Positions 46,653-59,425 of a stretch of DNA of 64,000 bases are shown here, one piece after another. The stretch covers positions 768,001 to 832,000 of the forward strand of contig JAXGMI010000002.1 in the NCBI GenBank assembly GCA_040768745.1, written 5' to 3'. This DNA comes from Desulfomicrobium sp. (GTDB lineage: Bacteria > Desulfobacterota > Desulfovibrionia > Desulfovibrionales > Desulfomicrobiaceae). A program made the translations under genes and the position numbers. The first letter of the stretch is position 1. Every line of letters begins with the position of its first letter. The notes under the pieces are model-generated. The model worked only from the letters and a program-made list of their open reading frames with translations. It did not search any database and had not been told where the DNA came from.

Positions 46653-47433
46653 CCCAAGTTTGACAGCAATATCGAGCTTATTTGTTTAAAATTAGGATAT
46701 TATCGCTTCGGCGCTAGTTGGAGTTTACACTACATCTCCTTTTTCTCCACGGGTCGGGATCGGCGGGACTCCCAGAGCACGCAGGATCTTTTTCTGCGCG
46801 TCCGTGGGGCGACTAGGAGTCATCAGCGTCTCCTCTCCGACCATGATCTCCCCCATCTTGATCTGACGCAGAAGGCGGATGGCTGTCGGCACAGACACTG
46901 CCATTCCTTTGAGCTTGTTGCGCATCCAGCGCTCTAACTGCAATGCGATCACGCAGACAAACACATGTGCCCTGATTCGCTCCTCAGTCCAGTGATACAC
47001 AGGGCGTAGTTCCAAGGTGCTTTTGAGCGCTCTCCATCCCCGTTCAATTTCAGCAAGCTCTTTGTAATGTTTGATAATGTCTGCGCATGGTGCATCCATG
47101 TCGGTTGTTTCGAGAAGCAAGACGCCATCGATCTTTTCCTCCCAAGCCCTGCGCTTCCTGTGGGCCTTGACGATGACCTGATCCTGAGTGAGCGCAACTT
47201 GGAACAATGAGAGCAAGCCCTTGTCACGCAGGTAATCCCTGATGCGGTCGTATTGACCCTGTGGGCTTGGTTTGCGTCCCTTGCCTGACCTTGGGGCGAG
47301 TATTTCCCGGATCTTGGCATCGGCCTTGGCAAGGCGCTCCTGGCGGTTCGCCTTGGTTTCGGCTGCGATCTTCGGAGAATAGGCCATAACGAACCGGACC
47401 CCGCTGCGAACTTCCTCGACAATCTCCTCGTCC
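46653..47433 (-). mobile_element. partial inverted IS1634-family copy (right end, 781 bp)
   Basis: Reverse complement of 48530-49308; begins with terminal IR CCCAAGTTTGACAGC; encodes transposase C-terminus. Confidence 0.92.
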
Positions 47434-49308
47434 CCCAAGTTTGACAGCGGCCTGAGGCTAACATCTCGAAGTTATGACTTATATTGATTTTTGATATCCG
47501 ATTTGTAGTACGTACAAAATAGACATAAACATTGCTATTCATGAATAATAATGCTACTCGTAGTTTATGTTTGTACGAATAGCCAAGCAGAAACGAGGCG
47601 ACAAAGTCTACCGCCATCTTCAGATCGCGGAATCTTTCCGTGATCCCGAGAAAGGCGGATCTCCGCGCACACGCATCCTGGCTCATCTCGGCACTATCGA
47701 GAGTTTGGGCGAAGACCAGGTCGAGAGACTCATCGCTGGCTTCCAGAAAGCTCTCGGTCGAGATCCGGTTCAGACTGGACCGCCGCTCCTCACGTTTGCA
47801 CGTGATTTCGGACATGTTCACGCGGTCAAACATCTCTGGGAAATCCTGGGACTCTCCAAAGCCCTGGCCCGTGCAGGAGTAAAGACCGGGGCCGGGATGG
47901 ATTATGCTGAACTGATCAAGTTGCTGATCGTCAATCGACTCTGCGATCCGTGCTCCAAACTGGCGCTACTGGATTGGCTCGATGGCGTCTGGCTTTCTGG
48001 ATTTGAGCAACACCGCCCGGCCTATCACCATCTCCTGCGCGCCATGGATAGATTGCTGGACGCGAAGGGAAGCTTTGGAGCCCTTGATAGCCAAGCGCTT
48101 CATGCCCAAGGCGCATTGGGAAGGCGACCTGCTCTTCTATGACATCACTTCCACATGGTTCGACGGGGATCGATCGTTGGTGGAGGATGACATTCGGCGC
48201 TTCGGATACAGTCGCGATGGCCGGTTTGATCGGCGCCAAATCACCATCGGCGTGGTCATGGGCAAGGACGGCATACCGCTTTGCCACCATGTCTTTCCGG
48301 GGAACACCGTGGATAAGACCACTGTGGTTGAGGTGGTGAAGGATCTGAAGACTCGCTTCAAGCTACGCAGCGTGGTGTTTGTCGGGGACAGGGGAATGCT
48401 CTCGGACCAAAATCTCGAGACGTTGCTGGCCGAGGAATTCGGCTTCATCGTGGCGCATCCATTGCGTCGTGGAGAGGAGGCGCGGAGCGTGATCGAGGCG
48501 TTGCGTCTTAAGATCTCGTTTAATGGGCAGGACGAGGAGATTGTCGAGGAAGTTCGCAGCGGGGTCCGGTTCGTTATGGCCTATTCTCCGAAGATCGCAG
48601 CCGAAACCAAGGCGAACCGCCAGGAGCGCCTTGCCAAGGCCGATGCCAAGATCCGGGAAATACTCGCCCCAAGGTCAGGCAAGGGACGCAAACCAAGCCC
48701 ACAGGGTCAATACGACCGCATCAGGGATTACCTGCGTGACAAGGGCTTGCTCTCATTGTTCCAAGTTGCGCTCACTCAGGATCAGGTCATCGTCAAGGCC
48801 CACAGGAAACGCAGGGCTTGGGAGGAAAAGATCGATGGCGTCTTGCTTCTCGAAACAACCGACATGGATGCACCATGCGCAGACATTATCAAACATTACA
48901 AAGAGCTTGCTGAAATTGAACGGGGATGGAGAGCGCTCAAAAGCACCTTGGAACTACGCCCTGTGTATCACTGGACTGAGGAGCGAATCAGGGCACATGT
49001 GTTTGTCTGCGTGATCGCATTGCAGTTAGAACGCTGGATGCGCAACAAGCTCAAAGGAATGGCAGTGTCTGTGCCGACAGCCATCCGCCTTCTGCGTCAG
49101 ATCAAGATGGGGGAGATCATGGTCGGAGAGGAGACGCTGATGACTCCTAGTCGCCCCACGGACGCGCAAAAAGATCCTGCGTGCTCTGGGAGTCCCGCCG
49201 ATCCCGACCCGTGGAGAAAAAGGAAATGTAGTGTAAACTCCAACTAGCGCCGAAGCGATAATATCCTAATTTTAAACAAATAAGCTCGATATTGCTGTCA
49301 AACTTGGG
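47434..49308 (+). mobile_element. IS1634-family insertion sequence (1875 bp)
   Basis: Perfect 15-bp terminal IRs CCCAAGTTTGACAGC / GCTGTCAAACTTGGG; transposase motifs YDITSTWF, FGYSRDGR, VGDRGM, IERGWRALK, LRPVYHW. Confidence 0.92.
47567..49236 (+). pseudogene. IS1634 transposase, frameshifted as read
   Basis: Extra G at 48067-48069 splits LLDAK/EALEPLIAK; 2-bp loss near 49168 relative to the partial copy. Confidence 0.8.
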
Positions 49309-51754: not shown

Positions 51755-52072
51755 TCACGAACTCGACAGCTTCATCAAGACCAGACCTGACACGATCAGC
51801 CCCGCAGCAAGGATCCTCATTGCATTGACCGGCTCAGCCAGCAAGATGATCCCGACGAGAAATGCCCCGACCGAGCCGATGCCGGTCCAGACGGTGTACG
51901 CGGTGCCGAGCGGTATGGTCCGCATGGCAAAGGCCAACAGCCAAAAGCTGCCCGCCATTGTAATCAGCGTGATCAGTGATGGGATCGGGCGGCTGAAGCC
52001 GTGGGACAGCCTCATCGAATACGCCCAGACAACTTCGAGAACACCGGCAAAGAAGAGTATAATCCAGGCCAT
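51755..52072 (-). CDS. sugE: SMR-family guanidinium exporter (SugE/Gdx)
   Basis: 105 aa MAWIILFFAGVLEVVWA...GTAYTVWTGIG; guanidine-II riboswitch upstream. Confidence 0.92.
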   Translation of the reverse strand: MAWIILFFAGVLEVVWAYSMRLSHGFSRPIPSLITLITMAGSFWLLAFAMRTIPLGTAYTVWTGIGSVGAFLVGIILLAEPVNAMRILAAGLIVSGLVLMKLSSS

Positions 52073-52094: not shown

Positions 52095-52145
52095 CCAGGC
52101 CGTCCTGGACATTCTTCCCGAGGCGGGGGGGAGGTCGTCCTCCTC
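52095..52145 (-). ncRNA. guanidine-II (mini-ykkC) riboswitch
   Basis: Two hairpins with ACGR loops: GGAGG-ACGA-CCTCC (52143-52130) and CCAGG-ACGG-CCTGG (52108-52095), about 22 nt upstream of the sugE ATG. Confidence 0.9.
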
Positions 52146-52291
52146 AAACGGTTTCCATACCTGAAAAGCCCCGGTCAGACAAGCAGGCAGTGTTCGAAGA
52201 ACCATGGCTTCCCGTTTGCAAACTGTCACCCAGGCACATCCTGTTCACTTTCTCAGGGCAGCCCATGCGCAGCAGAAAAGTGCAACACTTC

Positions 52292-54040
52292 CTAGCCCCT
52301 GCGCGCGATCTGCGACCCGTCGAAGAGGCCCTGGAAAAAGGCCATCGCGTTCACGCCCAGGGACCTGATGCGATATCCGCCCTCCTGCACGACCAGGGTG
52401 TGCCGGCCCAGGGCACCGATGAGCTTCCCGTTGCGGTGGAAGTCACGGGCCCGCAGGTCCCAGGTGCCTGTCGGGTCCCCTTTGGCCGGGTCCAGACCGA
52501 GCCCGACGACCAGAAAGGCCGGATCGAAGTCCGTGACCAAGCCCAGGGCGCGGCGCAGCACCTCGGCGTACCTCTCGCCGTCCATGTTCTCGGGCAGGGC
52601 GAAATTCCGGTTGAATCCGCATCCCGGCCCCTCGCCGATTTCTTCGGCGAATCCGCTGAAGTAGGGATAGGCGAAGCTGGGGTGCCCATGGATGGAGACC
52701 GTCAGCACGTCGGATCGTTCGTAGAAGATGTTCTGGGTGCCGTTGCCGTGGTGGTAGTCCACGTCCAGGACAGCTACCCGCCCGTGGGCGCTCAGCCGGT
52801 GGGCGACCACTGCGGCCGTGTTGAAGTAGCAGAAGCCCCCGAAGGCCCGCCGCTCGGCATGGTGTCCGGGCGGTCGGACCAGGGCGTAGGCTAGGCGGCG
52901 ACCGGCCAGGATTTCCTCCGCGGCGGTCAGTCCGCAGTCCACTGCCCCTCGCGCCGCGGCGTAGGCGTTGCCGTTCAAAGGCGTGAAGGTGTCGATGCAG
53001 TAGTAGCCTGCTCGTACGGCCAGATCCTTGGGCGGGCGCGCCGCGTTGCGGATGGGGAAGACATAAGGATAGACGGATTTCTTTTCGGGCAGCCCCGCGC
53101 AAACTGTCCTGAGATAGGACACGAAGCGGCTGTCATGGACCTGCGTGATGTGGCGCTCCGAAAAGTGACGGGCCTCCCCGCGCTGAAACAGGCCGGACTT
53201 CTCGACCTCCCGCAGGATGGAACTCATGCGCACCGGCGATTCGACGTAGCCGCGCTCCCGGATGTGATGGATGGAGTGTCCCTCGTTGCAGACCAGTCCG
53301 ATGCGGCGGTCGGCGCTGATGGCGGAGGGGCGGACGGGAAAGGCATCCCTCACGTAGCGGAAGTCCCGCAGGATCAGGGGTCCGGCAGGGATGGAGTCGA
53401 GGACCATCTGCACGTACCGCGGGGAGCACTTACCCCGGTACTTGCGTTCCAGCACAGCGCGGATGACGTGCCGGGCCCGGTCCCGCGTCAGCCGGAAGTG
53501 CCTGTCCAGGGGATCGGCCACCAGGTAGGGGGCGCAATCGTCTTCGGGGGAAAGGGGCGTCTCGTAGGCCGTGTTGACGACCGGACGCGCCCCGTAACGC
53601 TCGTAAAAGCGCAATCTAGCGACGTTCTCGCGCAGGAGTTCCGGGTCCCGGCACAGGGCCGGGTCGTCGGGCAGGCATTCGAAAAAGAGGGACGTATCGC
53701 CCAGGGCCCGGGCTTCCTCGCGCACCCGCTCGTAGAGGGCCGAACCCACGCCGCGCCCGCCGTGCAGCAGGCTGACCGAAAGGTAGTCCAGGTAGCAGAA
53801 GCGCAGGTCCGAGAAATGGCACAACAGGGCGAACCCCTGCACCACCCGGCGCTGCCCTTCGGCCACGAAGACGATGGTCCGGTACCCCTTGCCCAGGGGG
53901 TTCTTGAGGGTGGCGGGCAGGCTCTCCACCTCCTCGGCCGCAATCAGTGGAAAGCGCTCGGCCAGGATGGTCTGCACCTGCTCGACGCTCTGGGCGTCGA
54001 CCGGAACCGTGGTGTCGTAGATGGGGCGGATGCGGAACAT
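52292..54040 (-). CDS. GNAT acetyltransferase fused to HDAC/acetylpolyamine amidohydrolase domain
   Basis: HGGRGVGSALY (GNAT motif A); RPPGHHA, GGFCYFN, DVDYHHGNGTQ, GLD, QEGGY. Confidence 0.9.
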   Translation of the reverse strand: MFRIRPIYDTTVPVDAQSVEQVQTILAERFPLIAAEEVESLPATLKNPLGKGYRTIVFVAEGQRRVVQGFALLCHFSDLRFCYLDYLSVSLLHGGRGVGSALYERVREEARALGDTSLFFECLPDDPALCRDPELLRENVARLRFYERYGARPVVNTAYETPLSPEDDCAPYLVADPLDRHFRLTRDRARHVIRAVLERKYRGKCSPRYVQMVLDSIPAGPLILRDFRYVRDAFPVRPSAISADRRIGLVCNEGHSIHHIRERGYVESPVRMSSILREVEKSGLFQRGEARHFSERHITQVHDSRFVSYLRTVCAGLPEKKSVYPYVFPIRNAARPPKDLAVRAGYYCIDTFTPLNGNAYAAARGAVDCGLTAAEEILAGRRLAYALVRPPGHHAERRAFGGFCYFNTAAVVAHRLSAHGRVAVLDVDYHHGNGTQNIFYERSDVLTVSIHGHPSFAYPYFSGFAEEIGEGPGCGFNRNFALPENMDGERYAEVLRRALGLVTDFDPAFLVVGLGLDPAKGDPTGTWDLRARDFHRNGKLIGALGRHTLVVQEGGYRIRSLGVNAMAFFQGLFDGSQIARRG

Positions 54041-54220: not shown

Positions 54221-54634
54221 TCATGACAGCCTTCCGACCCATTGCGCTGCCCAATTCGCCGCGTCCACGCTCAAGCCCTCGCAGAGATGCTGCGGCTGCC
54301 CTTCGGCAAAGCCCTGCGGCCGCAAATCCCGGCAAAGCAGACTGCCGAAACGCGTCTCAAATTCACGGGCATATGCCTTGCACAGGTTTTCGACCTCTTC
54401 TGGGGAGCGACCGCGTCCATGCCCCCATATCCCCAGAAACATGAGCCCGCCTTCCACCAGCCCGCACTGGGCCCGAAATCGGCCCGCGCCGTTCATGCCG
54501 GTTGCCGCCGCAAAGACCTGCTCATGGATCTCCCGGTCTGTAACCGCCCCGAGCACGCGGAGCATGGCCACCGCTCAATTGACGTCATCGCGCCAGTAGG
54601 CATCGCGGACTACGCTCCGCACCGCATCATTCAT
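54221..54634 (-). CDS. C_GCAxxG_C_C family redox protein, predicted selenoprotein (Sec at codon 20)
   Basis: GGGGGGTG RBS, MNDAVRSVVRDAYWRDDVN-TGA-AVAML...QCGLVEGG...LLCRDL...HLCE; UGA at the family's N-C-A position. Confidence 0.82.
54540..54571 (-). promoter_or_regulatory. bacterial SECIS-like hairpin
   Basis: GTGGCC-AT-GCTCCG-[CGTGCT]-CGGGGC-GGTTAC, starting 3 nt after the UGA (54577-54575); loop 17 nt from the UGA with GU near the loop start. Confidence 0.72.
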
Positions 54635-55067
54635 GGCTCACCCCCCGCAAAAGGTTAGCAGATCTGCTTTTGACGATTATACGATACCCTTCTGTTTTCA
54701 TTTGTGATCCGCTCTGAACACATCCCCTGAATCCCGGTCCGTTGCATGCCAGGCCTGGCGCCCTGCATTGGGAATACATCGGGTCCACGAAAGGGGCTTG
54801 CGCAATCATGAGCCTTCGACCGGATCAGGCGGCCGAGATGCCTGCTGCGGGGCATGACCCGGAAGGCATCTGTGGTCCTTTTTGCGAAGCGGTCTGATCC
54901 AATGGTTCTTGTGCGCGACCTCCCGCTTCGGAAGAAACCACGGGGACATCGGGCTGCAGGCGACAGCCTTCACTATGGACAGCTCGGATCTGAACTATTC
55001 GTCGGATATAAGGCACCACAGCCTCGACGGCAACGGTCCACAGCCGGCGAACACCACCCTCCCCGAC

Positions 55068-57411: not shown

Positions 57412-57774
57412 GTGATTTCATTCTCGTGCAGGGTTTTCTATCTGATTCTGCTGTATCTGATTTTTCCCCTGAAGCTGTACGCCCAGGATTGGCACCTGGC
57501 CGGAACGCGGGGCATAATGAATTTTGTCGTTGTGTCCAAGGAGAGGGAAGCGGACAAGGATGTCTATCTTGAAGCGATTCAAAGCATCTGCAAGGTCGGC
57601 GAAAACTGCAAGATCATATTCTGGGCAAGCGCAGACCATGTTCCCACGTCATGGCCCATGACAGATGCGCAGAGGGAATCACGGGTTGTTGATTATTTCA
57701 AGGAAGGCAATTCTGAGGAGGAAAAATTTCTTTGGAATTGCCGGATAGTCAACGACCCGTCGCAATGTTTTTAG
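57412..57774 (+). CDS. small exported hypothetical protein
   Basis: AGGAGG RBS, GTG start, signal peptide ending LYA-QD, 4 Cys in mature part. Confidence 0.65.
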   Translation: MISFSCRVFYLILLYLIFPLKLYAQDWHLAGTRGIMNFVVVSKEREADKDVYLEAIQSICKVGENCKIIFWASADHVPTSWPMTDAQRESRVVDYFKEGNSEEEKFLWNCRIVNDPSQCF

Positions 57775-57786
57775 CAGAGGGAAAAA

Positions 57787-57809
57787 ACCCGTCGCCCCTG
57801 GCGACGGGT
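57787..57809. repeat. 23-bp hairpin direct repeat, left target copy
   Basis: ACCCGTCGCC-CCT-GGCGACGGGT, identical at 59426-59448, preceded by AAAAA. Confidence 0.9.
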
Positions 57810-59425
57810 CAGACTGCTGACAAAGTCACCTCAAAACCCTCGTCAAATGACGGGGGTTTTGTTATGAAAGCTTACATGTTACGCAGCACAGGACCCAAAC
57901 AACTGAAGTACGAATTCGTCTGCATCGAGCGCTTGGTTCCCAAAGATCATCTTCTTCGTAAGATCACCAAGTTCATCGATTTCCGTTTCATCCACGACAA
58001 GGTCAAAGACCTGTACTGTCCGGACAACGGCCGGCCGGCTCTTGATCCGACAGTGCTCTTCAAGATGCTCTTTCTGGGGTATCTGTTCGGCATCCGCAGT
58101 GAGCGGCGGCTGATTGAGGAGATCAAGGTCAATGTCGCCTACCGCTGGTTTTTGGGCTTCAGCCTGGAAGACAAGATTCCCGACGCCTCGACCATCAGCC
58201 AGAACCGCCGCCGTCGCTTCAACCAGAGCACGGTCTACCAGGAGATTTTCGACGAGATCGTGGTTCAGGCCATCCGCCGCAAGATGATCGACGGTCGTAC
58301 CCTGTACACGGATTCGACCCACCTCAAGGCCAACGCCAACAAGAACAAGTTTGTCGAAGCCGAGGTTGCCAAGAGCACGCGGGATTACATCGATGATCTG
58401 GAGCGGGACGTTGCCCAGGACCGGGCCGACCACGGCAAGAAGGCGTTGAAAGAGAACGATCCGGAACCCGAAACCAAGACGGTCAAGCAGAGCACGACGG
58501 ACCCGGAGTCTGGCTACATGCACCGGGACGGCAAGCCCAAGGGGTTCTTCTTTCTGGATCACCGCTCGGTGGACGGTCTTCATGGCCTGATCACGGATAC
58601 GTACGTGACGCCAGGCAATGTGCATGACTCGATACCGTATCTTGATCGTCTTGATCGACAGCGCGAACGATTTGGTTTTGAAGTGGAGGCGGTTGGACTG
58701 GATGCTGGCTACGCGACGACAGGAATCTGCAAAGGGCTTGAGGAGAGAGGGATTTTTGGAGTGGTTGGCTACCGTCGTTTTGGAAAAAACACGGGCCGCT
58801 TCAGACGCAAGGATTTTTTCTACGACGACTCAGTGGATTGCTACGTCTGCCCTGCAAACTGCCTTTTGAGTTACCGAACCACCAACCGGGCGGGTTACCG
58901 GGAATACGCCTCGGATCCCAAGATTTGCAAAGCATGTCAGCTTCTTGAGAGATGCACGACCAGCAAGATATGCCGACGGGTCATAGCGCGCCACGTATGG
59001 GAAGATAGTCGGGAACGCATCGACTCCAACCGGCTGACGGAGCGTGGCAAGGCCATCTATGCCCGACGCAAGGAAACGGTTGAACGCAGCTTTGCCGACT
59101 GCAAGGAACTGCATGGGCATCGTTACGCCCGGATGCGTGGTCTCTCGAAGGTCTTGGAGCAGTGCCTGCTGTGTGCGGCCGCGTTCAACATGAAGAAAAT
59201 CGCGCTGCACTTGTCCAGGTTGGGACTCCGCAGGCCAGCAAGCCCGGCGGGCGCCATGGCCGGGATGATTCTGTCCTTTATTTACGGGATATTCCAACAA
59301 CAGAAGCGCCAATACGCCCCAATTTGATCCCAGAAGGGCCTCCTGAACGATTTCAGGAAAAATACACATCGTCAGAAAAAACAAACCCTCGCCGGACAGT
59401 GTGACGAGGGTTTGTCAGTGGTCTG
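57810..59425 (+). mobile_element. IS1182-family insertion sequence
   Basis: Imperfect IRs CAGACTGCTGACAAA / TTTGTCAGTGGTCTG; flanking 23-bp direct repeat. Confidence 0.9.
57864..59327 (+). CDS. IS1182-family transposase (start 57864 or 57876)
   Basis: LVPKDHLLR, GRPALDP, SERRL, DSTHLKANA, STTDPESG, DAGY, RKETVERSFAD, NMKK. Confidence 0.92.
   Translation: MKAYMLRSTGPKQLKYEFVCIERLVPKDHLLRKITKFIDFRFIHDKVKDLYCPDNGRPALDPTVLFKMLFLGYLFGIRSERRLIEEIKVNVAYRWFLGFSLEDKIPDASTISQNRRRRFNQSTVYQEIFDEIVVQAIRRKMIDGRTLYTDSTHLKANANKNKFVEAEVAKSTRDYIDDLERDVAQDRADHGKKALKENDPEPETKTVKQSTTDPESGYMHRDGKPKGFFFLDHRSVDGLHGLITDTYVTPGNVHDSIPYLDRLDRQRERFGFEVEAVGLDAGYATTGICKGLEERGIFGVVGYRRFGKNTGRFRRKDFFYDDSVDCYVCPANCLLSYRTTNRAGYREYASDPKICKACQLLERCTTSKICRRVIARHVWEDSRERIDSNRLTERGKAIYARRKETVERSFADCKELHGHRYARMRGLSKVLEQCLLCAAAFNMKKIALHLSRLGLRRPASPAGAMAGMILSFIYGIFQQQKRQYAPI

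Follow-up and report, generated by a model that had tools for sequence, protein, structure and literature searches.

The C_GCAxxG_C_C proteins (Pfam PF09719) are already named among the predicted selenoproteins in the excerpted text of PMC9312934, and the excerpted text of PMC13188914 lists them as a predicted selenoprotein in two forms. The earliest listing that we traced, in an excerpt of PMC1976440, comprises three 'Putative redox protein' genes from Olavius symbionts. Related domains are found in the DVU_1555 family (NF045669) and in the HUGP/GUXX-star fusion selenoprotein (NF045501), and the predicted fold is shared by split-Soret cytochrome c (NF047622; PDB 1h21). Here we describe a PF09719 gene on the minus strand of a 64,000-nt stretch of Desulfomicrobium sp. 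DNA (assembly GCA_040768745.1, contig JAXGMI010000002.1, positions 768,001 to 832,000), referred to as the window, in which an in-frame TGA very likely encodes selenocysteine (Sec). The gene is a new member of an already known selenoprotein family; this is an annotation fix with a modest evolutionary side to it and not a discovery.

The preliminary description of the window had pointed out that the tracked open reading frame (ORF) starts at 54571, yet a ribosome-binding site and an ATG at 54634 precede it with 19 in-frame codons ending in Asn-TGA-Ala, and this gene model was borne out. A G-rich Shine-Dalgarno-like stretch ends 6-8 nt ahead of the ATG, and the TGA-containing orthologue of a relative (genome G020) carries a canonical GGAGGTG at the same site. 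From the ATG, 19 codons lead to AAT-TGA-GCG (TGA at 54577-54575), after which the frame runs open to the stop TGA at 54223-54221, giving a predicted product of 137 aa. The table-11 ORF begins with the GTG at 54571 and the public-collection entry (P0002) is a 114-aa product from Met24, which is the truncation that had been expected of standard gene callers. The features of the locus are as follows:

54221..54634, minus strand: full gene, 137 aa with the probable Sec20, divergent subfamily of PF09719 (62.2 bits, Pfam).
54638..54650, minus strand: Shine-Dalgarno-like stretch upstream of the ATG, from the sequence.
54575..54577, minus strand: in-frame TGA, codon 20, aligned with the first invariant Cys of the family; candidate Sec codon.
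54540..54571, minus strand: hairpin resembling a selenocysteine insertion sequence (SECIS), 12 bp plus a 2-nt bulge; loop CGUGCU at 54557-54552.
54464..54466, minus strand: invariant Cys57, in the CGxxxG motif (CGLVEG here).
54332..54334, minus strand: invariant Cys101.
54281..54283, minus strand: invariant Cys118; the subfamily-invariant His116 lies two residues earlier.

The 137-aa protein scored 62.2 bits against PF09719 (cut-off 27) over residues 19-131, and 57.1 bits without its N-terminal part. Against TIGR01909, which NCBIfam names 'C-GCAxxG-C-C family (seleno)protein', it reached 37.2 bits, under the curated cut-off of 47.4; since four subfamily relatives scored 25.1, 32.8, 38.5 and 50.7 bits, the subfamily straddles that cut-off. 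The score against NF045669 was 29.5 bits (cut-off 103), and the protein matched neither NF045501 at an E-value of 0.01 nor NF047622. Alignment with canonical members placed U20, C57, C101 and C118 on the four invariant Cys positions of the family, in keeping with the U/C/C/C pattern first proposed. The subfamily is recognised by the motifs YW..D.NC, GMHGAG, AQCGLVEG and PPHLCE; the second-Cys motif CGAxxG here takes the variant form CGLVEG, with the Cys, the Gly and the final Gly retained and Ala replaced by Leu throughout the subfamily. In the loci examined, the other members of the subfamily all carry Cys at the first position. The earlier surmise that Sec forms of the family might already be catalogued proved right, as both the NCBIfam name and published reviews show. 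The published Sec forms share with the window gene the Pfam domain, the four invariant Cys positions, a single Sec, and a hairpin right after the UGA with a G early in its loop. Forms 1 and 2 are tabulated by accession and without a motif in the excerpted source. The window gene differs from them in belonging to a divergent subfamily below the TIGR01909 cut-off, on a branch separate from the other Sec forms.

The UGA stands exactly at the Cys that relatives conserve, which argues for Sec. We compared codon 20 across 98 locus rows, of which 13 came from relatives, 80 were the best of 480 genome matches and 5 were metagenome matches; duplicates are included, and the rows represent 88 distinct contexts. 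The codon was TGT in 58, TGC in 36 and TGA in 4; Cys was thus encoded in 94/98 rows, and Cys or TGA in all 98, as the homologue check proposed earlier had anticipated. The four TGA rows represent the window gene and one orthologue, that of G020, which is another species. Between these two genes, the ratio of nonsynonymous to synonymous substitution rates (dN/dS) was 0.12 in codons 2-19 and 0.18 overall, at a dS of about 1.1-1.3; the codons upstream of the TGA are under purifying selection. A search for the Sec machinery, which had also been suggested, found selA, selB, selD and tRNA-Sec (selC) in the genome, each above its cut-off. The genes for SelD, for two formate dehydrogenases and for a NiFeSe hydrogenase in the same genome also contain in-frame TGAs, and in each, as in the window gene, a hairpin begins no more than 20 nt further on. 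Those selenoproteins are widespread enzymes of known function, whereas the Sec form described here was found in 2 of the 35 genomes of the taxonomic family searched. Overall, decoding of UGA at codon 20 as Sec is very likely on the sequence evidence.

The hairpin begins after 3 unpaired nt and consists of 6 bp, a 2-nt bulge and another 6 bp, with the loop CGUGCU 17 nt past the TGA; three of the 12 pairs are G-U. The six loop bases and their offset are identical to those of the NiFeSe-hydrogenase element in the same genome. Judged by a simplified home-made SECIS-like rule, which is not bSECISearch, the window hairpin passes, with a G within the first loop positions; both TGA contexts pass, compared with 8 of 86 Cys contexts. 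G020 retains the TGA and 11/12 hairpin pairs, three of them through pairing-compatible changes, and four Cys relatives retain 18/48 pair cells. Relative to G020, about 62% of synonymous sites have changed outside the hairpin and 3/11 inside it (p 0.047).

A first-Cys TGA is not peculiar to this locus. PF09719 matched 183 of 301 genomes of the phylum, and among 150 of the 423 matches, 23 contained an internal TGA and 11 started just past the first Cys. In the DNA of these 34, TGA stood at the first Cys in 32; one gene had a TGA at a non-Cys site and one had none, and six control genes all had Cys. Sec at the first Cys therefore appears to be frequent in the family. The hairpin rule was passed by 28 of the 32 genes. 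In the phylum sample (L132-L165), PF09719 genes with a first-Cys TGA form at least four sequence subgroups (NUAES, HUSQA, SUAQ/AUTQ and HUGQ contexts), and every subgroup has a hairpin type of its own. Because Sec and Cys forms interleave in a quick 77-row tree, repeated gains or losses of Sec in PF09719 are suggested.

As regards the origin of the present Sec form, seven of the 35 genomes carry the subfamily, two with TGA and five with Cys, and selA was present in all four of the five Cys carriers that were examined. A 34-row tree grouped the two Sec genes with five database proteins that are truncated at the same Met, in one clade (98/96) nested among Cys forms, and the quick 77-row tree, to which a long-branch warning is attached, set the whole subfamily far from other Sec forms. 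A sixth truncated database protein, P0026, groups with a Cys form, so that truncation alone is no proof of Sec. Since the Sec clade lies within the Cys forms of a divergent subfamily, the simplest reading, and a likely one, is a separate and recent Cys-to-Sec switch in one lineage of the genus, in which coding sequence gave rise to the SECIS. After the UGA, changes of codons and residues build the stem in the Sec forms. A fuller reading can be offered tentatively: in a recent, independent switch, a stand-alone split-Soret iron-centre domain may have gained Sec as an iron-sulfur (Fe-S) ligand, while its coding sequence (synonymous codons and residues 22 and 30-32) was reshaped to copy the NiFeSe-hydrogenase-type SECIS of the host.

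The proposed function is based on likeness to the split-Soret cytochrome c. Over 132 residues the window protein is predicted to adopt the same fold, and Cys44, Cys86, Cys147 and Cys171 of the 1h21 chain align with its positions 20, 57, 101 and 118. The two proteins have in common YW-x4-5-C ahead of the first Cys and a four-Cys helical domain. Their identity is only about 16-18%, and the window protein lacks the twin-arginine leader and the CxxCH haem domain; homologues L207 and L208 do have an export leader and a pair of CxxCH haem motifs, neither of which occurs in the 137 aa. Because the fold and the four Cys positions match, an Fe-S site is suggested, and the window protein may work like the iron-centre part of split-Soret cytochrome c without being a member of that family. 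We slightly prefer an Fe-S site to a bare selenol or thiol site, and for read-through as Sec and an Fe-S site taken together our preference is narrower still. SelB-dependent insertion of Sec at the UGA, with the hairpin downstream, would yield a 137-aa helical protein binding an Fe-S centre through Sec20, Cys57, Cys101 and Cys118. Such a protein could serve as a small electron-transfer or redox accessory protein, probably in the cytoplasm, as by eye its N-terminus does not resemble a signal peptide.

Alternatively, the protein could be a thiol-disulfide oxidoreductase or redox sensor that has no stable Fe-S cluster, in which Sec20 is a catalytic selenol and one of the three Cys is its partner in a selenylsulfide. 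Every Cys-aligned TGA that we saw falls on the first Cys (32 phylum genes and 2 here), which marks the position as reactive; in Pfam the family goes under the name of a putative redox-active protein, and redox functions are held probable for most uncharacterised selenoproteins in the excerpted text of PMC13188914. However, both a CxxC/UxxC motif and a thioredoxin fold are absent, and a metal site better fits four widely spaced invariant Cys positions matching those of an iron-centre protein. We consider this alternative rather doubtful.

The U/C/C/C site might instead hold a single metal or metalloid (Zn, Fe, Hg or As), the protein being a sensor or carrier linked to a transporter. In G020, G007 and L115 the gene comes directly after an amino-acid-permease-family gene, and a LysR gene in divergent orientation is present. 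The start of the gene in relatives (L193:6598-9188, L194 and L115) overlaps the stop of the permease gene or lies right against it, and the LysR gene and an aspartase-like lyase gene lie beyond. In five other loci a periplasmic binding protein gene comes next. Fusion to unrelated enzymes (GNAT, NUDIX, GDSL, methyltransferase, HD and others), seen in 9/10 long subfamily matches scanned, would also suit such a role. Against it, any one neighbour is common to at most 12/85 loci, the permease was not found in the window genome (G000), and the only solved relative is described as an iron-centre protein. A single-metal site is thus unlikely, and the Fe-S site remains our preferred reading.

Several observations weigh against Sec insertion and an Fe-S protein altogether, and would suit a TGA that is a true stop, either in a decaying pseudogene or in a gene of which only the 114-aa product starting at Met24 is made. 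There is an ATG in frame 9 nt past the TGA. The window copy has lost His48 and Pro115 and sits on a long branch, and neither the permease nor the LysR gene that neighbours the ancestral locus was found in G000. The folding energy of the hairpin is ordinary for such GC-rich DNA (-15.9 kcal/mol, z -0.49), with 52/200 shuffles folding equally well; three longer windows gave z +0.25 to +0.48, other folds winning in two, and 647 of 4000 random TGA triplets of the genome pass the simple rule. By energy and by this rule the hairpin is therefore within chance, and its position, loop identity and conservation are beyond it; the hairpin geometry first described (12 bp, bulge, 3-nt gap, CGUGCU at 17 nt) stood. 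A true stop is nevertheless very unlikely: the TGA has been retained in G020 at the divergence and under the selection given above, the 137-codon frame holds no other stop or frameshift, the hairpin is retained only in TGA forms, and first-Cys TGA recurs in 32 other genes of the family. That sequencing or assembly put TGA in place of a true TGC or TGT has a negligible probability, no support for it having been found: as to the proposed check of this codon, contigs of three runs spanning the codon (X1 and X6, which may be the source of the window DNA itself, and X15, an RNA library) contain no differing letters, contigs of a fourth (X16) end inside the codon, and the same TGA stands in a separate metagenome contig (L114) and in G020. 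As far as contigs can show, the TGA is no assembly error.

Two further PF09719 paralogues of the genome are both Cys-only. One (L031, G000:C1:1548309-1548665) lies in visibly AT-rich DNA and has Cys at the first position with no clear start ahead, its table-11 ORF beginning after that Cys; it was possibly acquired from outside. The other (L032, G000:C2:662785-663132) is a DVU_1555-family paralogue with Cys (171.9 bits), followed by a radical-SAM-like gene. At G000:C1:18610-25391, two adjoining molybdopterin-oxidoreductase genes of similar size, one with and one without an in-frame TGA, are a possible Sec/Cys isoenzyme pair.

Within the window, a gene for a 582-aa fusion of a GNAT acetyltransferase with a histone-deacetylase-family domain (52292-54040, minus strand) follows the selenoprotein gene on its strand, 180 bp downstream; some subfamily members themselves carry GNAT fusions. 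Further along is a match resembling the Guanidine-II (mini-ykkC) riboswitch (52095-52146, minus strand; 31 bits, gathering score 32, E 0.0042), immediately followed by a SugE/Gdx-type SMR exporter gene (51755-52072, minus strand; 123.1 bits against a cut-off of 126), an expected pairing. By eye, transposase-like ORFs at 46725-49247 contain the same 3' part twice in inverted orientation (46725-47438, minus; 47982-49247, plus) and, in a different frame, the 5' part (47567-48142); a further transposase-like ORF, of 531 aa, occupies 57732-59327.

Overall, the gene model corrects a public 114-aa fragment that lacks the proposed first ligand, and it extends a known selenoprotein family to a subfamily mostly missed by the NCBIfam model. 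If the Fe-S reading is true, a concrete and testable role would be available for a family with many selenoproteins and no tested function in the literature found. That role could be tested conveniently on this pair of closely related proteins, one with Sec and the other with Cys. Since the Cys forms that Sec-capable relatives carry are 62-66% identical, the pair would, if the proposed switch is also true, serve as an experiment of nature on the effect of a Sec ligand on an Fe-S cluster and on the way in which a SECIS comes into being within a bacterial gene.
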